A DNA stretch of 64,000 nucleotides from an uncultured Gammaproteobacteria bacterium (GTDB lineage Bacteria > Pseudomonadota > Gammaproteobacteria > SZUA-229), in contig CAWECN010000020.1 in the NCBI GenBank assembly GCA_963807625.1, positions 118,270 through 182,269 of the forward strand, read 5' to 3'. The position numbers and the translations under genes were made by a program. Positions 5,151 to 61,463 of the stretch are shown one piece after another (within the stretch, counting starts at the first letter, position 1; the number at the start of each line of letters is the position of its first letter). Under the pieces are notes generated by a model. That model was not told the origin of the DNA, made no database searches, and saw only the letters and a program-made list of their open reading frames with translations.

Positions 5151-8009
5151 ATGGAAAAAACCTATAACCCGCAAGCCATCGAAAGCAAATGGTACGAAAC
5201 CTGGGAAAGCAGCGGTTATTTTAATGCCAACCAGAGCTGCGAAGGTGCGAGCAAGACGGCAGAGTGCAATAACTACTGCATCATGATACCGCCGCCGAAT
5301 GTCACCGGCCGGTTACACATGGGACATGCCTTCCAGGACACCATCATGGACGCCATGATCCGTTATCACCGTATGAAGGGTGACAACACTTTATGGCAGG
5401 TTGGAACCGACCATGCAGGCATCGCTACGCAGATGGTGGTCGAACGTCTGATCAATGCCGAAGGCAAGACCCGTCATGATTACGGGCGAGAGAAGTTCAT
5501 CGAGAAGATCTGGGAATGGAAAGAACACTCCGGTAACACCATTACCAATCAGTTGCGCCGTATGGGCGCATCACTCGACTGGTCGCGTGAGCGTTTCACC
5601 ATGGACGAAGGTCTGTCGACGGCAGTAACCGAAGTTTTCGTACGCCTCTATGAAGAAGGGCTGATCTATCGCGGCAAACGCCTGGTCAACTGGGACCCAG
5701 CACTGCACACAGCGGTATCCGACCTGGAAGTGCTGTCGAAAGAAGAAAACGGGCACATGTGGCATATCCGCTACCCGCGCAGTAATGGTGCCGGCCATGT
5801 CGTGGTTGCTACCACCCGCCCGGAAACTCTGTTAGGTGACTTTGCTGTTGCGGTTAATCCCACTGATGAACGTTACTCATATCTACTTGGCGAGTTTCTT
5901 GAATTACCACTGACCGGCCGAAAGATTCCGGTATTGGCCGATGAACATGTCGATGCCGACTTTGGCACCGGCTGCGTAAAGATCACGCCGGCTCACGATT
6001 TCAACGACTACCAGGTCTGGTTGCGCCACAAGAACAAGACCGAAGTACGTGAGCTGCCTCACGGCGGCCTGATCAACATACTGACCAATGATGCAGCCAT
6101 CAGGGACAATGAAGATGATATACATAATATTATCCCGGAAGCGTATATCGGCCTGGACCGTTATGAAGCGCGCAAGCGGATTGTTGCCGACCTTGAAGCA
6201 GCCGGCCTGCTGGAAAAAGTGGACGACCACAAACTAATGGTGCCACGTGGTGACCGTTCTAATGCCGTCATCGAACCATTTTTGACCGACCAGTGGTACG
6301 TAAAAGTAGAACCGCTGGCAAAACCGGCGATCGAGGCGGTAGAGAACGGCCGTATCAAGTTCACCCCGGACAACTGGAAAAACACCTACTTCGAATGGAT
6401 GAATAATATCGAAGACTGGTGTATCTCACGCCAGATCTGGTGGGGACACCGTATACCTGCATGGTACGACGATGTCGGCAATGTCTATGTCGGTCATGAT
6501 ATCGATGAGGTCCGCAGCAAGAATAAATTACCGGACGACTTCCCGCTGACACAGGATGAAGACGTCCTGGATACCTGGTTCTCATCAGCGCTGTGGCCAT
6601 TCTCGACCCTGGGCTGGCCAGAGAAGACACCAGAGCTGGAAACTTACTACCCGACAAACGTACTGGTGACCGGTTTCGATATCATCTTCTTCTGGGTCGC
6701 ACGTATGATTATGATGGGGCTGAAGTTCATGGGCGATGTCCCCTTCCATGAAGTCTATGTACACGGCCTGGTACGTGATGCCGAAGGCCAGAAGATGTCG
6801 AAGTCTAAGGGCAACGTACTCGATCCGATGGACGTCATCGACGGCATCGACCTCGAATCGCTGGTAGAAAAACGTACTACCGCAGTGATGCAGACACACC
6901 AGGTAGAACGTATCGAGAAGCTAACGCGTAAAAACTTTCCTGATGGTATTCCCGCATTCGGCACCGACGCGATGCGCTTCACCTTCGCTGCCCTGGCGAC
7001 GACCGGACGCGACGTGGTGTTTTCACCATCACGTATCGAAGGCTACCGCAATTACTGCAACAAGATATGGAACGCCACACGTTATGTGTTGATGCAGGCA
7101 GAAGACAAAGACTGCGGTCTGCTCGATGATGGTTCAGATAAACCGGATGTCGTGCTGTCACTGGCCGACCGCTGGATAATCTCACGTTTACAACGTGTCG
7201 AAGCCCGTGTCGAAAAGCACAGCGACAATTCCCGCCTCGACCTGATCGCACATGACCTGTATGCCTTCGTCTGGGAGGATTACTGTGACTGGTATCTCGA
7301 ACTGTCGAAACCGGTTCTGTTTAATGATGAGACACCGGAGAATGAACAACGCGGTACACGCCGCACGCTGGTTCGCGTACTGGAAACACTGCTGCGCTTG
7401 AATCATCCTATCATCCCGTTTATCACCGAAGAGTGCTGGCAGAATGTTGCGCCACTCGCTGGCATACATGGCGACAGTATCATGCTGCAACCCTACCCCG
7501 AATCTGACGATAGCAAGATCGATGATAAAGCTGAAGAAGACCTGGAATGGGTGAAGACCTTTGTCAGTGGCGTACGCCGTATACGCTCCGAGATGGATAT
7601 CCCTCCGGGCAAACCATTATCGCTACTGCTGCAGAATGCGACCGACCACGATAAGCAGCTTTATCAGGACAACCAGGTCTTCATCGAAACCCTGGCAAAG
7701 ATAGAAAGCAGTGTATGGCTGACCGAAAAAGACGATGCGCCGGAATCGGCAACCGCCTTGGTTGGCGAGATGAAGATCCTGATCCCGCTTGCCGGACTTA
7801 TCGATAAAGACGCCGAGCTTGTGCGACTGGCGAAAGAGATCAGCAAGATACAGGCGAACGTCGATAAGACGACAGCCAAACTGGTGAACAAAAACTTTGT
7901 CAACAAAGCCCCGGCCACCGTCGTCGAAAAAGAAAGAGAACGGCTGGCTGAGATGAGCAGATCGATCGAGCAGCTTAAGGAACAGGCAGAGAAAATCAGC
8001 GCTCTCTGA
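5151..8009 (+). CDS. valS: valyl-tRNA synthetase
   Basis: 952 aa with class I aaRS HIGH ([14 protein letters not shown]) and KMSKS motifs and a C-terminal coiled coil. pepA-valS synteny is conserved. Confidence 0.97.
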
Positions 8010-8049
8010 TATTTCGATTTCCAGAGAAGAAAGCTTAAAAGCGATTCAT

Positions 8050-8146
8050 CGCAGAGGCACAGAGAACGCAGAGTTATATTTTATTAGCGTGCCTACGGCA
8101 TATTAACAAAAAATACATTTTCCTCTGCGTTCTCTGTGCCTCTGCG
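8050..8146. repeat. Long hairpin element: 24-bp perfect inverted repeat with a 49-nt loop, followed by a T-rich tract. REP-like; probable valS terminator.
   Basis: Left arm CGCAGAGGCACAGAGAACGCAGAG (8050-8073) is the exact reverse complement of the right arm (8123-8146). A T-rich run follows. A related element lies at 17925-18017. Confidence 0.7.
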
Positions 8147-8306
8147 GTTAAATCTTTTTGTTTTTTGTTCTTTGTTTTTCGTTCGACTTAACAGCCATTA
8201 TCAAGCAGCCAGACATATGAATACCTGGTCCTAAAATCCAGACTCTTGCAAAGTATCGGTTTAACAGGGTATCCTCATGTGAACCGTAACTATTAATATA
8301 AAAACC

Positions 8307-8858
8307 ATGGCAACTCCTGAAAAAACTGAACAGATCCTGCAAACACATGCCAGTCTCATACTGGCGGTAGTGCAGACGATCCAGAACCCGGATCTCAAAC
8401 CGCATTTAGATCTGGTACTGCAGCAATCTGCACAGAACGGCTGGCAGGACCTGGTCAACGCTATCAACAAGATCGTCGCCGGAAGCCGGGAGCAGTCACT
8501 GGTCAATGGCCTCGATGAAGAAGATGCCATCATCGTCGACAGCATACTTCTTGGCCTGCAGGACCCTTCGACGCTGCCATCTTCAGAGCAGACGGGCGAT
8601 GCAACCAAAGCCGCACCGATGATAGCCCGACTGATCAATGAAGCACGTCGCGGTGACCATAACGCGCTTTCCATGTTAGGCACCATGGCTGAACAGATGT
8701 CCAGAGCTGGTGGTGACATGGCCAGCCTCAGCGCTGTGATCAAAGACATGATCGACGGCGAACGCAGTATCGACAAACTATGCACACGCATGGGCGCGCA
8801 GGGTGAGTCACTGATAACACAGATCGTGGGCGAGCTGGGCAAACTCGATACACATTAG
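8307..8858 (+). CDS. hypothetical protein (no recognisable family)
   Basis: 183-aa ORF with an RBS-like GGA upstream and coding-like composition. It is the first gene of an apparent four-gene operon. Confidence 0.45.
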   Translation: MATPEKTEQILQTHASLILAVVQTIQNPDLKPHLDLVLQQSAQNGWQDLVNAINKIVAGSREQSLVNGLDEEDAIIVDSILLGLQDPSTLPSSEQTGDATKAAPMIARLINEARRGDHNALSMLGTMAEQMSRAGGDMASLSAVIKDMIDGERSIDKLCTRMGAQGESLITQIVGELGKLDTH

Positions 8859-8872
8859 ACCTGTATCGTCAT

Positions 8873-9430
8873 ATGATCCCTTCACAGCAACTCGTTATCC
8901 AGCAGACAGAAAACTGGATCGAAGAAGTTGTCATCGGCTTGAACCTGTGCCCTTTTGCTTCCTCAGTGTTCGAAGCAAAGCGTATCGCTTACCAGGTCAT
9001 TACAGGCAGTGATACGGCCTTACATCTTCAGCAGCTTGCCGACAGCTTTACCGAGCTCGATAATATAAAGACCACTGAAACCAGCCTGCTGATCTTTCCA
9101 GAGTCATACAGGGATTTTGATGAGTACCTGGATTTCCTGGAGATCAGTAACCAGTTACTGGAAGAGCTGAACTATGCTGGCACATACCAGTTAGCCAGTT
9201 TTCACCCCGACTACCTTTTCGAAGGCAGCACTGAAGATGATGCCAGCAACTTCAGTAACCGTTCACCCTACCCCATGCTACACCTGCTGAGAGAGAGCAG
9301 CATTCAAAGAGCTGTCAGCAGTTATGAAGATATTGAGCAGGTACCTGAGAATAATATAAAAAAACTGCGCGAGATCGGTTATGAAGAAATGCAACAGATC
9401 ATGAACCGTATCCTGAAGGTGCAGCCATGA
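8873..9430 (+). CDS. DUF1415-like conserved protein
   Basis: 185 aa with the N-terminal NLCPFA motif I associate with the DUF1415 family. Tightly spaced after the previous ORF. Confidence 0.5.
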   Translation: MIPSQQLVIQQTENWIEEVVIGLNLCPFASSVFEAKRIAYQVITGSDTALHLQQLADSFTELDNIKTTETSLLIFPESYRDFDEYLDFLEISNQLLEELNYAGTYQLASFHPDYLFEGSTEDDASNFSNRSPYPMLHLLRESSIQRAVSSYEDIEQVPENNIKKLREIGYEEMQQIMNRILKVQP

Positions 9431-52555: not shown

Positions 52556-54190
52556 GTGTCACACCAGCCACCCGATAATTTTACTACCACCCACCATCAG
52601 GGTGGACCAGACGCCTGGTACCGACTACGCCTTTTCAATTATTTCCGCGGCACACTCGCACTATTTTTCATCACGATATACTTCAACGGATGGTTGTTAC
52701 AACTTATCCCTCGTAGTTTTTCACATATTGAACTATTCATAACCACGTCGCTAATATATCTGGCGGCCTGCTTTCTTTTCATGGCCGGAATTATTCGCCG
52801 CAAGCCCGGGATCGATATCCATGTCATCGTTCACACATTGGTTGACATCTCATGCATCATTCTTCTGATGCATGCCACGGGCGGTATTCGAACAGGTCTG
52901 GGCATGTTACTGATCATCAGTATTTCGATGACCAGTTTATTTCTACATCAGCGACTCACCATCCTGTTCGCTGCTATTTCGGCGCTTGCAGTTATTGCAG
53001 AACAGATTTACTCACTGTTTTTCTATACGAATTACACACCCGCGTTTACCCAGGCCGGCTTGCTTGGCATACTGATATTCATCACTGCTGCAATATCAAC
53101 CTTCACTGCAAAGAGACTCAAAGAATCAGTGAAGATTGCAGAAGATGCCAGCCAGGAGCTGGAAACTATCGTTCAGATGAACGAACACATCATCCGCAGC
53201 ATGCGTACAGGGATCATCGTCATAAAAAATGATGGACAGGTCTTAATGACAAATAATGCAGCGCTGGAGTTACTCGGTCAGACTTCGATCAAGCCACTGT
53301 CGAAATTAAAAGATATCTCCACTGATTTGTATAACCGGTTTGTCGACTGGAACAATAATACAATTCAAAATCACCAACCGATACACCAGGCACAGGGATT
53401 ACCGGATATACAACCCGGGTTTAGTCATATCGATCAGCATATAAAAGCCAGTAACAGAAACCAGGGGCGCACTCTAATATTCCTTGAAGACGCCACACAG
53501 TTAACACAGCGTTTCCAGCAGGTAAAACTGGCATCACTTGGCCGTCTGACTGCAAGCATCGCCCATGAGATACGCAACCCACTGGCAGCCATAAATCATG
53601 CAGGGCAATTATTAGGAGAGACAGCAGAAGATGTTGCAGAGAAAAAGCTTACCGGCATTATCAACACCCAGGTAAAACGCCTTAACGGTATCGTTGAGAA
53701 TGTCCTACAGTTATCAAGGCAACAACGTGGCACACCTGAACTCATTAACATCTACCAGTGGTTAATACAGTTCAGAGAAGAATTTGTCGCCACATACAAA
53801 CTACAGGCATACCAGATACAGGTCAGGATCATTCCTGACAGTATCAATATACTTTTTGACTCGACCCAGTTACACCAGGTCGTCTGGAACTTGTGTTCTA
53901 ACGCAATCAATCATTCGCATCTGGACATATCTAATATCATGATCAACATTCAGGGAGGAATCGATACTGAAACCAGTCAGCCCTATATAGAAATCATTGA
54001 CAATGGCCAGGGCATAGACAAAGAAACCCAGACACATATCTTTGATCCTTTCTTTACTACAAGTGCAGAAGGGACAGGACTTGGCCTATATATCACCAAG
54101 GAAGTAATAGAAAGTAACCGTGCTAAGATACGTTATATTTCGCCACAAACTGGCGGCACCTGTTTTAGAATATACTTCCAACAAGCATAA
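52556..54190 (+). CDS. pilS: PilS-like sensor histidine kinase
   Basis: 544 aa with six N-terminal TM helices, H-box (SIAHEIRNPLAAI) and an HATPase_c domain. Immediately upstream of pilR. Confidence 0.85.
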   Translation: MSHQPPDNFTTTHHQGGPDAWYRLRLFNYFRGTLALFFITIYFNGWLLQLIPRSFSHIELFITTSLIYLAACFLFMAGIIRRKPGIDIHVIVHTLVDISCIILLMHATGGIRTGLGMLLIISISMTSLFLHQRLTILFAAISALAVIAEQIYSLFFYTNYTPAFTQAGLLGILIFITAAISTFTAKRLKESVKIAEDASQELETIVQMNEHIIRSMRTGIIVIKNDGQVLMTNNAALELLGQTSIKPLSKLKDISTDLYNRFVDWNNNTIQNHQPIHQAQGLPDIQPGFSHIDQHIKASNRNQGRTLIFLEDATQLTQRFQQVKLASLGRLTASIAHEIRNPLAAINHAGQLLGETAEDVAEKKLTGIINTQVKRLNGIVENVLQLSRQQRGTPELINIYQWLIQFREEFVATYKLQAYQIQVRIIPDSINILFDSTQLHQVVWNLCSNAINHSHLDISNIMINIQGGIDTETSQPYIEIIDNGQGIDKETQTHIFDPFFTTSAEGTGLGLYITKEVIESNRAKIRYISPQTGGTCFRIYFQQA

Positions 54191-54233: not shown

Positions 54234-55568
54234 ATGAGTGCAAAAAAGGTTCTCATCGTTGATGATGAAGTAGATATTTGCGAATTGATCGAGATCACTC
54301 TGATGCGCATGGATATTGCATCACAATCAGCACACAATATCACTGATGCAAAGTTATTACTTGAAACCGAACATTTTGATCTATGCCTGACTGACATGCG
54401 CATGCCAGATGGTAATGGCATCGATCTAGTTAGCCATGTTCAACAAAACCATAGCGAATTACCTATCGCTGTCATTACCGCACACGGTAATATGGAATCA
54501 GCAGTAAAGGCCCTTAAAGCCGGTGCCTTCGACTTTGTTTCCAAACCTGTTGATATCCAGATACTACGCAACCTGGTTTCTGCTGCCACCACCCTGCCAG
54601 AAAAAACCGAAAACAAAAAAACAGGAAAAGATCAGATTACCATTACTGGTGAATCAGACGTTGTTAAGACACTGTTGAATAACATCGCCAAGCTGGCAAG
54701 AAACCAGGCACCTGTCTTTATACATGGCGAATCCGGCTCAGGCAAAGAACGCGTCGCCAAGATGATACACCAGCAAGGCTCACGCAGCGAAGGCCCTTTT
54801 GTTCCCGTGAACTGCGGCGCGATTCCTGCCGAACTGATGGAGAGTGAGTTTTTTGGCCACCTCAAAGGCAGCTTTACTGGTGCGCACTCAGATAAAGAAG
54901 GTCTGTTCCAGGCTGCGAACGGCGGCACCCTGTTTCTGGATGAAATTGCCGAACTGCCTCTTAACATGCAAGTAAAGCTTTTACGCGTCATCCAGGAAAA
55001 AGCTGTTCGCGCTGTCGGTGCATCACAGGAGAATCCGGTTGATGTAAGAATTCTCAGTGCAAGCCATAAAAACCTTGTCAAACTGGTGGCCGATGGTGCT
55101 TTTCGAGAAGATCTGTATTACCGGATAAATGTGATCGAGCTGACCATTCCCAGCCTACGAGAAAGACAACAGGATATCCCGATATTCGTCGAGCAACTGC
55201 TCGTCAGTCTCGCGCAGAAGATGGGAGTAGAAGTTCCTGCCATAGAGATAGAGGCCATTAAAGCGCTGCAAAATTACCATTTTCCAGGCAATGTCAGAGA
55301 ATTAGAGAATATCCTTGAGCGAGCTATCGCACTGTCTGATGATGATACCATCTCACTGCAGGATTTAAATCTCAAAATAATAACTGAAAACGAGGCATCC
55401 GAACCTACCACTCCATATGTTGACCCCATGGACCTTGCCGGCCAGGAACGCCATAGCATCATACAGGCCCTGGAAAAAACCCGCTGGAACAAAACTGCCG
55501 CTGCTAAGAAACTGGGCTTAAGCCTGCGACAACTTCGTTACCGATTACAAAAGTTAGATATAGAGTAA
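54234..55568 (+). CDS. pilR: sigma-54-dependent response regulator PilR (NtrC family)
   Basis: 444 aa with a receiver domain, an AAA+ sigma-54 activation domain (GESGSGKE, GAFREDLYYRINV) and a C-terminal HTH. Confidence 0.9.
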   Translation: MSAKKVLIVDDEVDICELIEITLMRMDIASQSAHNITDAKLLLETEHFDLCLTDMRMPDGNGIDLVSHVQQNHSELPIAVITAHGNMESAVKALKAGAFDFVSKPVDIQILRNLVSAATTLPEKTENKKTGKDQITITGESDVVKTLLNNIAKLARNQAPVFIHGESGSGKERVAKMIHQQGSRSEGPFVPVNCGAIPAELMESEFFGHLKGSFTGAHSDKEGLFQAANGGTLFLDEIAELPLNMQVKLLRVIQEKAVRAVGASQENPVDVRILSASHKNLVKLVADGAFREDLYYRINVIELTIPSLRERQQDIPIFVEQLLVSLAQKMGVEVPAIEIEAIKALQNYHFPGNVRELENILERAIALSDDDTISLQDLNLKIITENEASEPTTPYVDPMDLAGQERHSIIQALEKTRWNKTAAAKKLGLSLRQLRYRLQKLDIE

Positions 55569-55849
55569 ATACAAATTCCATCGAACACACTCTAATCACA
55601 GGCTACTTAATGTCACCAACAGTTGAAAAAGCATAAAGCGAATAGCAAGTCCCGGTTGAAACTGATGCTTTTACCTATTGCAGCCTCTCTCGTAACTGTC
55701 ATTAAAGAGTCTATTTCACTCACCATATCGCTCATGTCTTACAAATTTGTCACTATCTGACAGTATTTGTCTACTCACAACACCATGAAACATGATAACC
55801 GCAACGTTAAGTTATTGATTTTAAACATTTCTTAAATACTTATAACAAT

Positions 55850-55865
55850 TGGCACAGTATCTGCT
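55850..55865 (+). promoter_or_regulatory. sigma-54 promoter (-24/-12) of pilA1
   Basis: TGGCACagtatCTGCT: a GG-N10-GC arrangement matching TGGCAC-N5-TTGCW. It lies about 95 bp upstream of pilA1, downstream of pilSR. Confidence 0.7.
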
Positions 55866-55960
55866 ATACCAATAACAGTCTTAAACACAAAAGACCCAAA
55901 TACAAAAAAATAAAACTTATTTTTAATCAACAAACTTAATTTACATCACTGGAGATTCAC

Positions 55961-56368
55961 ATGAAAAAAGTACAACAAGGTTTTACCCTTATCGAATTAA
56001 TGATCGTAGTTGCGATTATCGGTATTCTGGCATCTGTCGCACTGCCTGCTTACCAGGATTACACAAGATCTGCTCGTGCTTCTGGCATGACTTCAGCAGC
56101 TGGCGCATTTGCTTCAGCAGCTCGTATTGCTGTAGAAGCTGATGGTGTAGCAGTCGGTGCTATCGCTTTGGGTTCTAACGGTGTTCCAACAGCTGCACAG
56201 CTGCAGCTTGATGCTTCCGTTGCTACTGCCGCGTGGGCCACACCTGTACTAACAATTACCGGCAACAACGTCGGTACTAGTAACACGCTTACTGTAACAA
56301 TTGCAGCAGATGGTACTGCAACATATGCTGGTAACTGTATAACAGACGGTATTTGTAAAGGCCTGTAA
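55961..56368 (+). CDS. pilA: type IVa major pilin
   Basis: 135 aa with the class III prepilin leader [24 protein letters not shown] (cleavage G|F, E+5) and a C-terminal disulfide loop CITDGIC. Confidence 0.9.
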
Positions 56369-56405
56369 TATTGTAAACCCTCTCTCATAGAGGTTTATAA
56401 AAGAA

Positions 56406-56433
56406 CCCCCACTCTAACGTGGGGGTTTTTTTT
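56406..56433 (+). terminator. rho-independent terminator after pilA1
   Basis: CCCCCAC-TCTAAC-GTGGGGG followed by TTTTTTTT. A second upstream hairpin is AAACCCTCT...AGAGGTTT. Confidence 0.85.
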
Positions 56434-56724
56434 GCATAATCGCTTCGCCTGGCAAGAGACAGGAGAGACAATACCCAAATATAATTCTTTCGATAACTAC
56501 CACAGGGTCGATTGGGGCGTTACTTTTTATCCGTGCGAACGGACACACAACCCTCATAACCTCAGAGATATGTTCTAAACCTACCCTTCAGCTGTCAAAT
56601 CACCATGTAAACCCTGGTCATGTTTTACAAAGAATGTCACATATTGACAGAAAATCTGTCAATAAATACGGTTTATAACACGTTAACTCACTTAAGTTTC
56701 TGTTTTTTATGTTTATATTATTAT

Positions 56725-56740
56725 TGGCATATTATATGCA
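56725..56740 (+). promoter_or_regulatory. sigma-54 promoter (-24/-12) of the second pilin gene
   Basis: TGGCATattatATGCA: GG-N10-GC spacing, about 80 bp upstream of the second pilA start. Confidence 0.65.
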
Positions 56741-56818
56741 GAATAAACTTATAAATATAAAACAAGCCTAAGTAATATAAAAAACTTTTACTAAATCTAA
56801 TACGGTCATAAGAAAGTC

Positions 56819-57226
56819 ATGAAAAAACAACAAACGGGTTTCACCCTTATCGAGTTAATGATTGTTGTAGCAATCATTGGTATCTTGGCCTCCGTCGCCC
56901 TGCCAGCCTATCAGGACTATACGAGATCGGCCCGTGCAGCAGGTATCGTCACTGCTGGTGGCACCTTCGCATCCGCAGCAAGAATAACAGTAGAAGCAGA
57001 TGGTGTGGCAAACACAGCACTGGTATTGGGTTCCAGTGGATTACCGACGGCCGCACAACTCATACTGGACTCAAACGTCGCTTCAGCTTCACTTGCGTCT
57101 AATGTACTAACGTTGACCGGTGCCAATATTGGCACCAACAATACCCTTACGGTAACCATCGATGCAGCTGGCTTACCAACATATGGCGGCAGTTGCGTTA
57201 CTGGTGGCATCTGTAAAGGACTATAA
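56819..57226 (+). CDS. pilA: second type IVa pilin paralog
   Basis: 135 aa. The N-terminal 40 residues are nearly identical to pilA1; the central and C-terminal regions have diverged (C-terminal loop CVTGGIC). Confidence 0.9.
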
Positions 57227-57549
57227 AATAGTTCACAAGCAGTATTGTATATCTCATAGCGTACGCTGCTGCTCTAAACAGAGCGCTACTCACCAGAGTA
57301 GTCTACACTCCACGTCATTTTTATATCGGCCAGATCCTCGCGCAGGAACCTGGCCGATTAACCTATGAACCACCATATTCAAGCGGCTATCCCATCGAAA
57401 GAAGCTCACGCGCAACTTGTTTCCATTCGACTGCGGGTTCTACATAATAAAACTACAGAGATAAGCTATATTTTCAAGAATTTATCGAAATATCAGCTAT
57501 GCTAATGCAATAATAATAAAAAATTTATTTCGCTAGTTATAAAAATAAT

Positions 57550-59277
57550 TTGGGATTTTTCATGGCTGCAGAACTCAGACTAAACGGGCTATCTCGTAAG
57601 CTTGTCCTCGATGGACTGCTTGATGAAGAGCGTGCAATTGACGCTTTAAAAGGGGCAATAAAAGAAAAAGTCTCCTTCACTCGATACCTTGTTGAAAACA
57701 AGATCCTTAGCGCTAAAAAGATAGCGATGGAAGCCTCCAAGGAATTTGGCTTACCAGTCTTCGATCTCGATGCGATCGACCCTGAATCAATACCCCGAGA
57801 TGTGGTCGACGACAAACTCATCCAGAAACACCACGCACTGCCTTTGTATAAAAGAGGTAAGCACTTATATATAGGCATATCAGACCCAACCAATCTTGCC
57901 GCCATCGATGACATCAAGTTTCAGACAGGCGTCAATACTGAAGCCGTCCTCGTAGAAGAAGACAAATTAACCACCATGGTAGAAAAACTGCTGGAAGAGC
58001 AGGAAGCCGCCATGGATGACATGATGGGTGATGATCTCGAAGACCTGGACGATCTTGATTTTGCCGACCCTGATGCAGATAAGGTAGCTGATGACGCTGG
58101 TTCTGACGTCGATGACACACCCGTGGTACGTTTCATCAACAAGATTCTGCTGGATGCTATCAAGAAAGGAGCCTCGGATATTCACTTCGAGCCATATGAG
58201 AAAAGCTATCGTGTACGGTTACGTATTGATGGCGTATTACGCGAGGTCGCAAAACCACCGATACAGATGAGCCCTAAGTTGTCTGCTCGTGTCAAAGTGA
58301 TGTCGCGCATGGATACCGCTGAGAAAAGGGTACCGCAAGACGGCAGGATAAAATTAAAGATTTCCAAAACCAAAGCCATCGATTTTCGTGTTAATACCTG
58401 CCCCACGCTCTTTGGCGAGAAGATCGTGCTACGTATCCTTGACCCTTCCAGCGCAACTCTTGGTATCGATGCTTTAGGTTACGAGCCCGATCAAAAAGAA
58501 CTTTATCTAAATGCCCTGGCCAACCCTTACGGTATGATCCTTGTTACCGGCCCAACAGGTAGCGGTAAAACCGTATCCCTGTATACCGGTTTAAACATCT
58601 TGAACACCGTAGACACGAATATTTCAACCGCAGAAGACCCTGCCGAGATCAACCTGGAGGGCATTAACCAGGTAAACGTAAATGACAAGGTCGGCTTAAC
58701 ATTTGAAGCAGCATTACGTGCTTTCCTGCGCCAGGATCCAGACATCATCATGGTAGGTGAGATCCGTGACCTGCAAACTGCTGAAATCGCGATCAAGGCA
58801 GCTCAGACAGGCCACATGGTTATGTCTACCCTGCATACAAACGATGCCCCGCAAACACTGGCTCGCCTGGTAAATATGGGCGTACCACCTTTTAATATCG
58901 CCTCTGCAGTTAACCTGATCATCGCGCAGCGTCTGGCTCGACGTCTGTGCAACAACTGTAAAGAGAAAGTAGATATACCGCGTACGGCACTCGAAGAGGA
59001 AGGTTTCACCGCAGAGCAGATCGACGCAAAACCTGAACTCTTTAAAGCCAAGGGATGCGACCAGTGCAGTGAAGGCTACAAAGGCCGAGTTGGTATTTAC
59101 CAGGTATTACCTATTTCTGAGGCAACCGGCCGTATTATTATGGAAAATGGTACAGCCATCGATATTGCTGATCAGGCAGAGAAAGAAGGTATTGACGACT
59201 TAAGAAAGTCGGCTATTAAAAAAGTTATCGCGGGTTTGACCAGCCTCGAAGAAATTAATCGCGTAACCAAAGATTAA
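57550..59277 (+). CDS. pilB: type IV pilus assembly ATPase PilB
   Basis: 575 aa GspE-family ATPase with Walker A (GPTGSGKT) and a tetracysteine motif. Likely start at MAAELRL (57562). Confidence 0.95.
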   Translation: MGFFMAAELRLNGLSRKLVLDGLLDEERAIDALKGAIKEKVSFTRYLVENKILSAKKIAMEASKEFGLPVFDLDAIDPESIPRDVVDDKLIQKHHALPLYKRGKHLYIGISDPTNLAAIDDIKFQTGVNTEAVLVEEDKLTTMVEKLLEEQEAAMDDMMGDDLEDLDDLDFADPDADKVADDAGSDVDDTPVVRFINKILLDAIKKGASDIHFEPYEKSYRVRLRIDGVLREVAKPPIQMSPKLSARVKVMSRMDTAEKRVPQDGRIKLKISKTKAIDFRVNTCPTLFGEKIVLRILDPSSATLGIDALGYEPDQKELYLNALANPYGMILVTGPTGSGKTVSLYTGLNILNTVDTNISTAEDPAEINLEGINQVNVNDKVGLTFEAALRAFLRQDPDIIMVGEIRDLQTAEIAIKAAQTGHMVMSTLHTNDAPQTLARLVNMGVPPFNIASAVNLIIAQRLARRLCNNCKEKVDIPRTALEEEGFTAEQIDAKPELFKAKGCDQCSEGYKGRVGIYQVLPISEATGRIIMENGTAIDIADQAEKEGIDDLRKSAIKKVIAGLTSLEEINRVTKD

Positions 59278-59317
59278 CCCGGCTAAAGATTGAAGTAATA
59301 ATCTACAGGACACAGAG

Positions 59318-60553
59318 ATGGCAAAGGCAAAAGAAAAAATAAAAAACGCAACCTTCAGTTATGAGTGCACCAATAACAAGGGCCAGCCGATCAAGGGTGA
59401 GATGATAGCTGCCAGTGCTGATGTTGTAAAAGCAGAATTACGCAAACAGGGGTTAACCCCTAAAAAAGGCAAGATCAAGAAAAAAGGCGGCAGCTTATTT
59501 GCCGCCAAACAAAAACCGATCACCACCAAAGACATCGCTGTTTTCAGCCGTCAGCTTGCCACCATGATGAAAGCAGGCGTTCCCATGGTACAGTCTTTTG
59601 ATATCGTTGGTCAGGGGCACTCGAACCCAAGCATGACAAAACTTATCATGCAGATCAAAGCCGATGTCGAGGCTGGTGGCACCCTGGCAAGTGCTCTAGC
59701 AGAACACCCGGTGTATTTTGACGAGTTATTTGTCAGCCTGGTTGATGCCGGCGAACAATCCGGCGCCTTAGAGACCCTACTAGAAAAAGTAGCGACATAT
59801 AAAGAAAAATCTGAAGCATTAAAAACCAAGATCAAAAAGGCGATGACATACCCTATTTCGGTACTCGTCGTGGCTGTTGTTGTGTCTGCCATTCTGCTGA
59901 TTTTTGTAGTCCCGACCTTCGCCGAGATGTTTGAAGGATTCGGTGCTGAACTGCCGGCCTTTACATTATTCGTAGTCGCCTTATCAGACACACTCGTCGA
60001 GAACGTGTGGCTTTTTATCGGTGCCATCGTAGCCTTTATATATGTTTTTAAACAAGCAAAGCTTCGATCAAAAGCTTTTAGAGATTCCTTAGACCAACTA
60101 ACACTCAAATTACCTACCGTTGGAGCATTAGCTACAAATGCTGCTATCGCACGTTTTGCAAGGACTCTTGCCACCATGTTTGCCGCCGGTGTGCCGCTGG
60201 TTGAGGCCATGGTCTCGGTTGCCGGTGCTGCGGGTAACAGCGTATACAAAGAAGCGATCCTCAAAGTAAGGGATGACATCGCTTCAGGTACAACCCTGCA
60301 GGTAAGCCTCTCTTCGAAAAAAGAGCTGTTCCCCAACATGCTGATCCAGATGGTCGGTATCGGCGAAGAATCCGGCGCCCTTGATGAGATGCTGGACAAA
60401 GTTGCCGAGTATTATGAAGAGGCGGTCGATGATGCGGTCGATAATTTAACTGCCATGATGGAACCGATGATCATGTCATTCCTCGCTGTCGTCATCGGCG
60501 GCCTGGTTATCGCCATGTATCTGCCTATCTTCAAGATGGGTGAAGTGGTTTAA
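59318..60553 (+). CDS. pilC: type IV pilus platform protein PilC (GspF family)
   Basis: 411 aa with two GspF repeats and three TM segments. Confidence 0.95.
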   Translation: MAKAKEKIKNATFSYECTNNKGQPIKGEMIAASADVVKAELRKQGLTPKKGKIKKKGGSLFAAKQKPITTKDIAVFSRQLATMMKAGVPMVQSFDIVGQGHSNPSMTKLIMQIKADVEAGGTLASALAEHPVYFDELFVSLVDAGEQSGALETLLEKVATYKEKSEALKTKIKKAMTYPISVLVVAVVVSAILLIFVVPTFAEMFEGFGAELPAFTLFVVALSDTLVENVWLFIGAIVAFIYVFKQAKLRSKAFRDSLDQLTLKLPTVGALATNAAIARFARTLATMFAAGVPLVEAMVSVAGAAGNSVYKEAILKVRDDIASGTTLQVSLSSKKELFPNMLIQMVGIGEESGALDEMLDKVAEYYEEAVDDAVDNLTAMMEPMIMSFLAVVIGGLVIAMYLPIFKMGEVV

Positions 60554-60584
60554 ACGCCATACAACAATATAAAGAATATCATTC

Positions 60585-61463
60585 ATGTTAGAAGATATCG
60601 TAATTACTCTTCAGTCATCACCGTGGCTGTTCTATTCTTCCGTAATTTTTATTGGGTTAAGTGTAGGCAGCTTCTTGAACGTAGTCGCATATCGTCTACC
60701 TAAGATGATGGAGCGAGACTGGAAACGTGAATGTCACGAATTTCTTGAACTTGAACCACCGCAGACAGAAGAAGATCTTAAAAAGTTTAACCTGGCGACA
60801 CCTGCGTCAGCGTGTCCACATTGCGGACATAAACTGCGCGCATGGGAAAACATCCCGGTTATCAGCTATTTATTTTTAAAGGCCAAATGTTCCTCCTGTG
60901 GCTCGAAGATATCTATGCAATACCCGGCTGTTGAGCTGATCACTGCTATAGCTTCGCTTCTTGCAGCATACACCTTCGGTGTAACCATACAGACGGTTGC
61001 CGCTTTATTCTTAACCTGGGTTTTGATCACACTTACTCTGATCGACCTGAAAACACAGCTATTACCAGACAGTATTACTCTACCGCTACTATGGCTGGGA
61101 ATACTTTTAAGCTTCTTCGATGTATTCACTGATCTAACGTCCAGTGTCGTCGGAGCCATGGCGGGTTACCTCATCCTCTGGTCGGTCTACCAGTTATTCA
61201 AACTGCTGACAGGAAAAGAAGGTATGGGCTTTGGTGACTTCAAGCTATTAGCAGCGCTTGGTGCCTGGATAGGTTATAGCTACCTGCCACAGATCATCCT
61301 GGTATCATCTGTTGTCGGTTCAGTCTTTGGTATCAGTATGCTGATCATCGGCAAAACCAAACAGCAGCAACCAATACCTTTTGGTCCCTATCTTGCTGTT
61401 GCAGGATGGATCGCCCTGTTATGGGGAGAGGCAATCAACACTACCTACCTGTCATTCTTATAA
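60585..61463 (+). CDS. pilD: prepilin peptidase / N-methyltransferase PilD
   Basis: 292 aa with an N-terminal Cys-box (CPHCGHKL...CSSCG) and a multi-TM aspartic protease core. Confidence 0.95.
   Translation: MLEDIVITLQSSPWLFYSSVIFIGLSVGSFLNVVAYRLPKMMERDWKRECHEFLELEPPQTEEDLKKFNLATPASACPHCGHKLRAWENIPVISYLFLKAKCSSCGSKISMQYPAVELITAIASLLAAYTFGVTIQTVAALFLTWVLITLTLIDLKTQLLPDSITLPLLWLGILLSFFDVFTDLTSSVVGAMAGYLILWSVYQLFKLLTGKEGMGFGDFKLLAALGAWIGYSYLPQIILVSSVVGSVFGISMLIIGKTKQQQPIPFGPYLAVAGWIALLWGEAINTTYLSFL

Follow-up and report, generated by a model that had tools for sequence, protein, structure and literature searches.

Why should a type IV pilus locus that encodes a single set of assembly proteins carry two full-length pilin genes side by side, and how are the two copies expressed? 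The question is raised by a tandem pair of 135-residue prepilin genes in a 64-kb stretch of DNA from an uncultured marine gammaproteobacterium, referred to here as the window. The pair is flanked by pilSR on its 5' side and by pilBCD on its 3' side, in the following arrangement:

52556 to 54190, + strand: pilS, sensor histidine kinase (PF25323 6TM_PilS at 1e-29, HisKA, HATPase_c)
54234 to 55568, + strand: pilR, sigma-54-dependent response regulator, an enhancer-binding protein (Response_reg, Sigma54_activat, AAA_lid_14, HTH_8)
55961 to 56368, + strand: pilA1, prepilin of 135 aa and probable major pilin (PF07963 match; GGAG at 55951-55954)
56819 to 57226, + strand: pilA2, prepilin of 135 aa, probably a lower-expressed, conserved paralogue (PF07963 match; weak AAGAAAG ribosome-binding site)
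57562 to 61463, + strand: pilB, pilC and pilD, encoding the assembly ATPase (T2SSE and MshEN), the platform protein (T2SSF) and the prepilin peptidase (Peptidase_A24 and A24_N_bact)

These profile matches bear out the co-directional order pilS-pilR-pilA-pilA'-pilBCD given in a preliminary description of this DNA, with all seven genes on the + strand. We consider it probable that the locus contains a tandem of type IVa pilin modules, each complete and transcribed separately from the other, in which pilA1 would provide an abundant major pilin and pilA2 a lower-level alternative or modulating subunit. The Sigma54_activat domain of PilR (PF00158) matches at 3e-68, and the protein has D54 within DMRMP as well as a GSFTGA loop at residue 212 that is one substitution off the canonical GAFTGA-type motif. 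The cognate prepilin peptidase and assembly machinery (PilB, PilC, PilD) are encoded directly 3' of the pilin pair, and no further prepilin genes beyond pilA1 and pilA2 were found within the 64-kb window. Small open reading frames in the 450-nt pilin-pilin spacer are all shorter than 50 aa, none of them supported. An Rfam scan of 55400-57700 (E up to 1) returned only sub-threshold matches, scoring 20-23 bits where the gathering scores are 42-80; every one was driven by the terminator hairpin described below, so that no known RNA element is indicated. We did not see rpoN in the examined part of the window, and its presence is therefore assumed.

The two pilins align without gaps and share 100 of 135 residues (74% identity). 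Their N-terminal 40 residues had been described as almost identical, and this holds: residues 8-40 are the same in both, the only N-terminal differences being V4Q and Q6T in the leader, with S41A the next. The leader and alpha1-N account for only two of the 35 substitutions; the other 33 fall in alpha1-C, the alpha-beta loop, the beta-sheet and the C-terminal region. Both proteins contain the prepilin N-methylation motif PF07963 (E 3e-10 and 4e-10) and also match TIGR02532. Their leaders, MKKVQQG in PilA1 and MKKQQTG in PilA2, the latter followed by FTLIELM..., are short and basic with a glycine end, and precede Phe+1, Glu+5 and a hydrophobic alpha1-N; among 60 homologues, G7 through P29 is invariant. 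The Pfam Pilin domain PF00114 went undetected in PilA1 and PilA2, yet it is present in relatives at 45-50% identity. An AF2 model of PilA1 (pLDDT 89.3), with a helix at residues 10-59 and strands at 87-93, 96-101, 109-114 and 120-123, predicts a pilin fold in which a long N-terminal helix packs on a four-stranded antiparallel beta-sheet. The top PDB matches of the model are all type IV pilins (9laa, Shewanella PilA; 8p3b, Neisseria PilE; 6gv9, EHEC PpdD), with weak Foldseek E-values (0.0025 or worse). The only two cysteines are C126 and C132; across the 60 homologues C132 never varies and C126 is kept in 90% or more. The translations confirm the loops CITDGIC in PilA1 and CVTGGIC in PilA2 that had been read earlier, and with five residues between the cysteines these are far shorter than the disulfide-bonded D-region of classical T4a pilins. 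Because the first 40 residues are almost identical, common processing, assembly and sensing are to be expected: both pilins would be cleaved and methylated by one PilD, assembled by one PilBC machine, and would feed back on PilS via the same membrane segment.

Upstream of the two genes the following elements were located:

55732 to 55774, + strand: candidate PilR enhancer 1, with a TGTC half-site, TTACAAA, the dyad TGTCACTATCTGACA (55748-55762) and a further TGTC (dyad match; 95% conserved against L004)
55808 to 55820, + strand: IHF-like site TAAGTTATTGATT, between enhancer 1 and promoter 1 (matches the consensus YAANNNNTTGATW)
55850 to 55865, + strand: predicted sigma-54 promoter 1 (-24/-12), TGGCACagtatCTGCT (pattern match; identical in L003, L004 and L005)
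56618 to 56662, + strand: candidate PilR enhancer 2, with TCATGTTTTACAAAG, the dyad TGTCACATATTGACA (56635-56649) and a further TGTC (dyad match; 88% conserved against L004, beside a spacer conserved at 64%)
56725 to 56740, + strand: predicted sigma-54 promoter 2 (-24/-12), TGGCATattatATGCA (pattern match; 100% conserved in L003, L004 and L005)

The claim that an independent -24/-12 element precedes each pilin stands. A search of the two strands of the 64-kb window for TGGCAY-N6-TGCW gave just two matches. Chance predicts about 0.95 matches at any position in the window but only about 0.002 at the sites actually occupied, which are on the coding strand, 111 and 94 nt ahead of the pilin start codons. 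Against the canonically spaced TGGCAC-N5-TTGCW, promoter 1 fits 10 of the 11 specified positions and promoter 2 fits 9 of 11, straying further from consensus (TGGCAT, ATGCA). An element of this kind is found 85-135 nt before nearly every pilR-adjacent pilin in related genomes.

Upstream of these promoters, the dyad TGTCA-N5-TGACA occurs twice in the 64-kb window against 0.04 expected, beginning 102 nt (copy 1) and 90 nt (copy 2) before the -24 element. It is present in 36 of 51 related pilin promoters, mostly 100-104 nt from -24, over a background of 0.012 per 170 nt; the 102 nt of enhancer 1 is the modal distance in this set. When the paralogues are aligned, the two enhancers fall opposite each other, and it is only in the enhancer block and in the -24/-12 element that the regions upstream of pilA1 and pilA2 resemble one another. 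The dyad is likely the PilR enhancer, an assignment made from position and co-occurrence and not from a match to a known site. An IHF-like site was identified at copy 1; since its consensus YAANNNNTTGATW is not enriched window-wide (4 found, 3.6 expected), this assignment draws only on position and on the recurrence of the motif at the equivalent position in three relatives (L013, L014, L016). The consensus has no match at copy 2, where the enhancer-promoter spacer is A/T-rich. With its poorer consensus, no IHF-like site and an enhancer 12 nt closer, promoter 2 could be weak or conditionally silent.

Hairpins were located downstream of each gene:

56399 to 56433, + strand: intrinsic terminator of pilA1, a 14-bp hairpin and T8 run (a smaller hairpin precedes it at 56373-56398)
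57327 to 57356, + strand: conserved GC-rich hairpin after pilA2, without a U-tract (folding; two compensatory changes)

A strong terminator had been proposed after the first pilin. Folded in one piece with the hairpin before it, it has an energy of -29.1 kcal/mol (z = -5.8 relative to shuffled sequences), and its pairs have changed on both sides in relatives, from A-U to G-C and from C-G to A-U, so that the proposal now has compensatory changes behind it. A built-in scan had reported the hairpin at 56404-56427 as a terminator on the minus strand only, a call we rejected on finding that + strand folding gives the hairpin followed by a U8 tract. The pairing of the pilA2 hairpin is kept by its two compensatory changes within a surrounding spacer only 57-71% conserved; it may mark or stabilise the 3' end, or act as a weak terminator.

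Taken together, these elements suggest how the locus may work. Each module would begin with a PilR enhancer and a sigma-54 -24/-12 promoter, followed by about 70-85 nt of 5' UTR, the prepilin gene itself and a hairpin on its 3' side. Some 100 nt ahead of each promoter, phosphorylated PilR would bind the dyad together with the TGTC half-sites that flank it, and would then activate sigma-54 RNA polymerase at both promoters. The pilA1 terminator would largely shield pilA2 from read-through, and some pilA2 mRNA may come from promoter 1 by terminator leakage. Comparative evidence, which includes a clade-wide dyad at enhancer distance, the full conservation of the -24/-12 elements in orthologous contigs and the sigma-54 interaction domain of PilR, supports control of both pilins by PilSR through sigma-54. 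In this respect the preliminary description, which had proposed two distinct major pilins, differentially expressed under PilSR/sigma-54 control, agrees with the independent promoters, the shared dyad and the Sigma54_activat domain; its picture of both as major pilins fits only in part, as the asymmetries between the copies point elsewhere.

These asymmetries are of several kinds. The ribosome-binding site is GGAG for pilA1 and a weak purine-rich AAGAAAG for pilA2. Third-position GC (GC3) is 0.29 in pilA1, below all 41 reference ORFs, against 0.43 in pilA2 and a window ORF median of 0.51, bearing in mind that codon bias is an indirect proxy of expression and that the window has no ribosomal-protein genes with which to calibrate GC3. 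In relatives, single-copy and upstream pilins have a GC3 of 0.18-0.32, and downstream copies (L004, L010, L016, L023) one of 0.47-0.55. The better -24/-12 match, the IHF-like site, GGAG, the extreme codon bias and the faster evolution of the protein (see below) make pilA1 look like the abundant, fast-evolving major pilin, and pilA2 looks like the lower-expressed and more conserved one. Its product would serve as an alternative subunit or as a modulating one, comparable to what is seen in the pairs PilA2/PilA1 of Legionella, PilAI/PilAII of P. stutzeri and PilA1/PilA2 of Xylella. The IHF-like site, the ribosome-binding sites and GC3 thus point to a major and a lower-level pilin over two equal majors.

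A different reading of the same features, in which the genes form a true alternative pair, each serving as major pilin under different conditions so that IHF, growth phase or other regulators would yield two kinds of pilus from one machine, survives best among the alternatives and is nonetheless rather unlikely. It can draw on the differing promoter architectures (an IHF-like site and 102 nt at copy 1; no such site, 90 nt and TGGCAT/ATGCA at copy 2), on the insulation of the two units by the terminator, on the concentration of substitutions outside the leader and alpha1-N, and on the conservation of both copies. However, the primary input appears common to both promoters, which carry the same activator dyad, so that a quantitative difference in expression is more likely than a switch of regulator; and the codon-bias asymmetry, seen across four lineages, indicates lower expression of the downstream copy over a long time, as opposed to an equal alternative.

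It is improbable that the genes instead form a pilA1-pilA2 operon in which pilA2 RNA arises mainly by read-through of the terminator, the match at promoter 2 being a non-functional relic of duplication. Operonic pairs do exist in the clade, since in four short-gap loci (50-125 nt: L013, L016, L023, L063) the second pilin is without a -24/-12 element of its own, and promoter 2 is the one further off consensus. Against this, in the orthologous contigs promoter 2 is 100% and its 5' UTR 95% conserved, whereas the spacer between terminator and enhancer is 64% conserved; overall, promoter 2, enhancer and 5' UTR are 88-100% conserved between the window and L004, where synonymous sites of the pilin genes are 24-30% different. 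A relic would have decayed. The pilA1 terminator is strong and has been kept through compensatory changes, and a long gap is likewise combined with a second enhancer and promoter in L010, L014, L076 and L090. A terminator and a second enhancer and promoter, all of them conserved, favour separate transcription units.

Could pilA2 nevertheless be a redundant duplicate drifting to loss, with no function of its own? Many relatives manage on one pilin (L001, L006, L011, L015, L021), but the duplication is old, as synonymous sites are saturated between the copies: pS is 0.78-0.80 throughout, and reaches 0.80 over codons 1-42, which take in the stretch of identical protein. An orthologous pilin pair is present in L003, L004 and L005, and the pilA2 ORF is intact in four contigs. 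Compared with its L004 orthologue, pilA1 is 85% identical (dN 0.108, dN/dS 0.28) and pilA2 93% identical (dN 0.035, dN/dS 0.12), the lower ratio being that of pilA2; for reference, pilS is 97% identical to its L004 orthologue at the nucleotide level. Judged by these ratios, purifying selection has acted on both copies. Moreover, the exact PilA2 protein is on record from an independent sample (a 1.46-kb contig); an exact-sequence look-up of PilA1 found no record. Drift to loss is on this evidence very improbable. Because the copies are old and both kept as orthologues, a decaying duplicate and a silent recombination cassette are both essentially ruled out.

In Neisseria, pilS copies are without promoter and N-terminal coding region and have conserved nucleotide tracts in common with pilE. 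Here the likeness is that more than one pilin-coding sequence lies near the expression locus; unlike those copies, copy 2 of the window starts with an ATG and a full leader and is preceded by an enhancer and a -24/-12 element, and no tract longer than 11 nt is shared. The earlier suggestion that pilA2 is a stored donor for gene conversion into pilA1 is scarcely credible: despite the divergence hot spot that pilA1 forms relative to its flanks, and a boundary pattern in L014 (coding regions about 90% identical in nucleotides, upstream regions 45-65%) that suggests conversion between tandem copies there, pilA1 and pilA2 are nowhere identical over more than 11 nt, pS is saturated also across the stretch of identical protein, the two copies are joined by no common repeat family, no G-quadruplex motif is present (search of 55001-57700), and copy 2 is complete, promoted and under purifying selection. 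The repeat search of 55500-57600 also found no flanking direct repeats of a recent duplication.

A separate candidate, conversion of the L004 pilA1 from pilA2 over a stretch that the two share, was also rejected: the common residues use different codons throughout, and the single-copy pilin of L006 has the same residues. Over that stretch the comparison indicates that the window pilA1 is the derived sequence.

The arrangement itself is real, and it has known counterparts in Legionella, in Pseudomonas stutzeri and in Xylella. In Legionella pneumophila, pilA2-pilA1 are adjacent, same-strand, monocistronic genes of major-pilin type, 136 and 137 aa long and about 72% identical (Barajas, Mayoral and Cianciotto, mBio 2026; PMC13170364). 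Their differences are distributed over the length of the protein; only the upstream one acts as major pilin, biofilm is affected in opposite ways by the two, different species carry from 1 to 4 copies, and a PilS/PilR pair is present (PMC13170364). This is a near-exact analogue, tandem, co-directional, full-length and of like length to the window pair (135/135 aa, 74%). The Legionella pilin locus lies away from pilSR and pilBCD with a gap of 196 bp, whereas the window pair sits between pilR and pilB with a gap of 450, each pilin having a clear enhancer and -24/-12 element. Within the window pair there is evolutionary asymmetry (dN 0.108 against 0.035; GC3 0.29 against 0.43). The Legionella and window duplications are very probably independent. 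In Pseudomonas stutzeri, pilAII lies just downstream of pilAI and is weakly expressed. These two closely related pilA genes reportedly have opposite influences on natural transformation (Graupner and Wackernagel 2001, J Bacteriol 183:2359, cited in PMC6370729). In Xylella fastidiosa, the major-pilin paralogues PilA1, PilA2 and PilA3 use a single T4P machine, and a PilSR system is present as well (Merfa et al. 2023; PMC9956873); single knockouts have different, partly opposing phenotypes, and a pilA1 pilA2 double knockout abolishes twitching (PMC9956873). The lineage differs, and the Xylella work is functional whereas the window is known from sequence comparison alone. Because experiments in Legionella, P. 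stutzeri and Xylella have already established that an abundant major pilin can go with a modulating paralogue, the present pair would hardly surprise a specialist. Its value is rather as a clean, comparatively supported case of tandem major-pilin paralogues in which both copies keep a full PilR/sigma-54 module within the core pilSR-pilBCD locus.

Whole-module tandem duplications appear to recur in at least five related lineages (the window with L003-5, L010, L014, L076 and L090). Such repeated independent duplication, and the consistent way in which the downstream copy differs from the upstream one, suggest recurrent selection acting on two-pilin systems. It is tempting to go further, tentatively and with the balance against it, and to propose that the duplicating unit is the whole enhancer-promoter-pilin-terminator module, copied on separate occasions in no fewer than five lineages of a single uncultured marine gammaproteobacterial clade, and that one PilSR reads two differently built promoters, the PilA1:PilA2 ratio being set by the level of phosphorylated PilR or by growth state. 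If true, filaments could be mixed or switchable: the exposed subunit would evolve fast and the back-up subunit would stay conserved, which might serve, for instance, as insurance against pilus-specific phages.

In P. aeruginosa, pilA is described as having a sigma-54 -24/-12 promoter with PilR acting on upstream TGT...ACA or GTCT-type elements (Jin et al. 1994, cited in PMC6058289 and PMC8035640), with PilS sensing pilin via its membrane domain. The pilBCD-coaE-zapD neighbourhood is common to P. aeruginosa and the window, but the former has a single pilA divergent from pilB, and the latter two pilins co-directional with it. The PilR consensus quoted for P. aeruginosa, TGT-N11-ACA, also differs in spacing from the TGT-N9-ACA of the window (TGTCA-N5-TGACA). 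The dyad, at its fixed distance of about 100 nt, is a candidate PilR site for a large uncultured clade of marine and hydrothermal Gammaproteobacteria, and could be used to predict PilR regulons. In more distant relatives of the clade, CGTCA...TGACG is found in place of TGTCA...TGACA.

The tandem-pilin feature is, on sequence evidence, real and well supported. Domain matches agree with the co-directional order reported in a preliminary description: pilS (6TM_PilS, HisKA, HATPase_c), pilR (REC, Sigma54_activat, HTH_8), pilA1, pilA2, pilB, pilC and pilD, all on the forward strand, flanked more widely by bamD/yfiO and nadE at one end and by coaE, zapD and a NUDIX/ThiE fusion at the other. In the ORF list pilB begins at a TTG (57550); its orthologue in L004, a related metagenome contig, and the conserved N-terminus MAAELRLNGLSR favour the ATG at 57562 as its true start. 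No prepilin genes besides the two listed here were found in the 64-kb window.

Features of the tandem pilin region
55961-56368, forward strand: pilA1, 135 aa, leader MKKVQQG
56399-56433, forward strand: pilA1 terminator; folded together with the hairpin before it, -29.1 kcal/mol (z = -5.8)
56819-57226, forward strand: pilA2, 135 aa, leader MKKQQTG then FTLIELM...
57327-57356: GC-rich 30-nt hairpin after pilA2, CGGCCAG...CTGGCCG, without a U-tract

Both products begin with a typical class III signal peptide and match the prepilin N-methylation motif (PF07963, E about 4e-10; also TIGR02532). They align without gaps at 74% identity and do not differ over residues 8-40, so that the two 135-aa pilins described as near-identical over the N-terminal ~40 residues are indeed so, with most differences lying beyond. 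The 35 differences are spread over the leader (2), alpha1-C (7), alpha-beta loop (9), beta-sheet (14) and C-terminal region (3), the last including the loop CITDGIC vs CVTGGIC. An AlphaFold2 model of PilA1 made with 60 homologues (mean pLDDT 89.3) has a helix at 10-59 and four strands. Among solved structures, its closest neighbours in both sequence and fold are type IV pilins throughout (Shewanella oneidensis PilA, 9laa; Neisseria PilE; EHEC PpdD). The Foldseek E-values (0.0025 or worse) are weak, which is common for small, lollipop-shaped proteins. C126 and C132, the sole cysteines, are conserved across homologues and would delimit an unusually short D-region; Pfam PF00114 was not detected in the pilins.

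The proposal of an independent -24/-12 element before each pilin is borne out by a search of both strands of the window for TGGCAY-N6-TGCW, which has only two matches, at 55850 and 56725, on the coding strand and 111 and 94 nt before the respective ATGs; about one is expected anywhere in the window, and about 0.002 at those two positions. When the paralogous upstream regions are aligned, they are alike in two islands only, this element and a block TCATGTYTTACAAA..TGTCAC-N4-TGACAG. The dyad TGTCA-N5-TGACA likewise occurs twice in the window (55748 and 56635; shuffles expect 0.04 and never reach 2), 102 nt from the -24 element for pilA1 and 90 nt for pilA2, and a search for PilR-binding repeats upstream of both promoters yields a candidate at each. 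Known PilR sites are TGT...ACA or GTCT-type elements upstream of the sigma-54 promoter (PMC6058289); the P. aeruginosa consensus is quoted as TGT-N11-ACA (PMC8035640), of the same kind as, although not identical to, the TGT-N9-ACA seen here. PilR of the window has the phospho-acceptor D54 and the GSFTGA sigma-54-contact loop. Between enhancer 1 (the candidate PilR block at 55732-55774) and promoter 1, TAAGTTATTGATT at 55808 is a perfect IHF consensus that recurs there in several relatives; no match lies between enhancer 2 (56618-56662) and promoter 2.

These signals recur among relatives. Eighty genome loci were collected via PilR (uncultured Gammaproteobacteria and Thiotrichaceae MAGs, many of them sampled at hydrothermal or subseafloor sites; best PilR identity 86%), and several additional metagenome contigs via the pilins. 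The first pilin beside pilR is almost always preceded by TGGCAC-N5-CTGCW, 85-135 nt before its ATG, and 36 of 51 distinct pilin promoters carry the dyad with at most one mismatch (background 0.012 per 170 nt), mostly 100-104 nt upstream of the -24 element; a TTACAAA box and TGTC half-sites flanking the dyad are also conserved. More distant relatives (L053, L056, L057, L073, L075, L086; PilR about 57-59% identical) have CGTCA-N5-TGACG at the dyad position, as is expected if a site co-evolves with its binding protein, which suggests that PilR specificity and its dyad may have done so.

The pilS-pilR-pilA1-pilA2-pilB arrangement is also present in three metagenome contigs, L003, L004 and L005, in which genes flanking the pilins have about 95-97% nucleotide identity to the window. 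Compared with L004, orthology is copy-to-copy, with 85% amino acid identity and dN/dS 0.28 for pilA1, and 93% and 0.12 for pilA2. Non-coding conservation is patchy: both -24/-12 elements are 100% identical, the 5' UTR of pilA2 95%, the enhancer blocks 88-95% and the pilA1 terminator 93%, and the spacer from terminator to enhancer 2 is 64% identical. This is the pattern predicted by functional elements, with both genes and both control regions maintained. The strong terminator described after the first pilin keeps its pairing via two both-sided changes (four sequences). The hairpin downstream of pilA2 is also kept, in L004 and L005, with two compensatory changes in a spacer otherwise 57-71% identical; it may stabilise the 3' end, mark a processing site or act as an atypical terminator ahead of pilB. 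Both pilins (pilA1, dS 0.389, dN 0.108; pilA2, 0.285, 0.035) diverge from L004 faster than the flanking pilR (0.126, 0.006), pilS (0.120, 0.012) and pilB (N-terminal part; 0.229, 0.006), and are divergence hot spots; nucleotide identity in the C-terminal half of pilA1 falls to 72-76%. The raised synonymous divergence hints at older alleles imported by recombination, not at selection on protein alone. The anatomy of the locus, its conservation and these selection patterns can be taken as established at the level of sequence.

The event that gave two copies, a duplication or else an acquisition from a close relative, is old, since the proportion of synonymous differences between pilA1 and pilA2 is 0.78 (0.80 in codons 1-42, which encode near-identical protein), their longest stretch of identical nucleotides is 11 nt, and no repeat family is common to both. 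The same observations count against the alternative that the second pilin is held as a recombination donor; every testable defining feature contradicts a silent cassette, and we found no sign of gene conversion between the two copies in the window. In a neighbour-joining tree, pilA2 of the window and of L004 form with two further pilins (P0010, P0014) one 'copy 2' clade that sits inside this group's copy-1-type and single-copy pilins. For the family at large the cassette idea is not absurd, given L014: there the tandem pilins (7674-9261) share 96% of their amino acids and, over the coding region, about 90% of their nucleotides, with a sharp boundary to upstream sequences that are only 45-65% identical and include an enhancer and a promoter for each copy. 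This boundary suggests that, unlike in the window, gene conversion has acted between them.

Codon usage, GC3 in relatives, translation and promoter signals, rates and occurrence point to pilA1 as the probable major pilin and pilA2 as one probably made at a lower level. GC3 of pilA1 is 0.29 (T3 0.44), below all 41 long ORFs of the window (median 0.51), and that of pilA2 is 0.43; in relatives, upstream and single-copy pilins have 0.18-0.32, and the downstream copies of L004, L010, L016 and L023 have 0.47-0.55. In pilA1 a GGAG precedes the ATG by six nt, the -24/-12 element is the better of the two matches, and the IHF-like site is present; the only ribosome-binding signal of pilA2 is AAGAAAG. 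An exact-sequence look-up found the PilA2 protein on record in another sample and no exact PilA1 protein. L088, a contig of 1,458 nt obtained in a different sequencing run, is 100% identical to 56547-58004 and ends inside the pilA1-pilA2 spacer; this and the PilA2-only records fit strain-level variability centred on pilA1 that would break assemblies there. Codon bias being an indirect proxy for expression, the data suggest that pilA1 is an abundant, exposed, rapidly diversifying major pilin, and pilA2 appears to be a lower-level subunit of more constrained sequence.

The main interpretation of the preliminary description, separately promoted pilin paralogues, is largely right. We infer PilR binding, sigma-54 dependence, the expression ratio and co-assembly as follows. 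PilS would sense the pilin pool in the membrane, as has been described in P. aeruginosa (PMC6058289); once phosphorylated, PilR would occupy the dyads and switch on sigma-54 RNA polymerase at each promoter, and the terminator after pilA1 would keep the genes as separate units. Since the two pilins have the same alpha1-N, they would be processed by PilD, assembled by PilBC and sensed by PilS alike, and could co-polymerise; differences in their output would be quantitative, set by the quality and enhancer spacing of each promoter, the IHF-like site and translation signals.

Tandem major-pilin paralogues are already established as a kind. In Legionella pneumophila, pilA2 and pilA1 are adjacent monocistronic genes separated by 196 bp (136 and 137 aa, about 72% identity); only the upstream one shows major-pilin behaviour, their biofilm effects are opposite, and pilA copy number across Legionella species is 1-4 (PMC13170364). 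Xylella PilA1, PilA2 and PilA3 have functionally diverged (PMC9956873), and in P. stutzeri, according to a title cited in PMC6370729, pilAI and pilAII influence transformation in opposite directions. This locus adds that both copies lie within the pilSR-pilBCD core, and that activator site and promoter are both duplicated and both demonstrably conserved. The whole-module arrangement is present in four further lineages (L010, L014, L076, L090); short-gap pairs (L013, L016, L023, L063) have no second promoter. In L030, L032-L036, L038, L041 and L042, pilA is followed at 200-490 nt by a short pilin-like gene (129-136 aa) that is 29-38% identical to it and has no -24/-12 match; these genes form a tree clade of their own, and the class is a different accessory pilin, which the window lacks. 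Single pilin genes vary in position and orientation among close relatives (L001, L006/L007, L091/L092): in L001 the gene diverges from pilB and converges on pilR, in L006 it converges on pilR with no pilB nearby, and in L091 it sits between the NUDIX/ThiE gene and zapD. Pilin gene, enhancer and promoter thus appear to travel together as one module.
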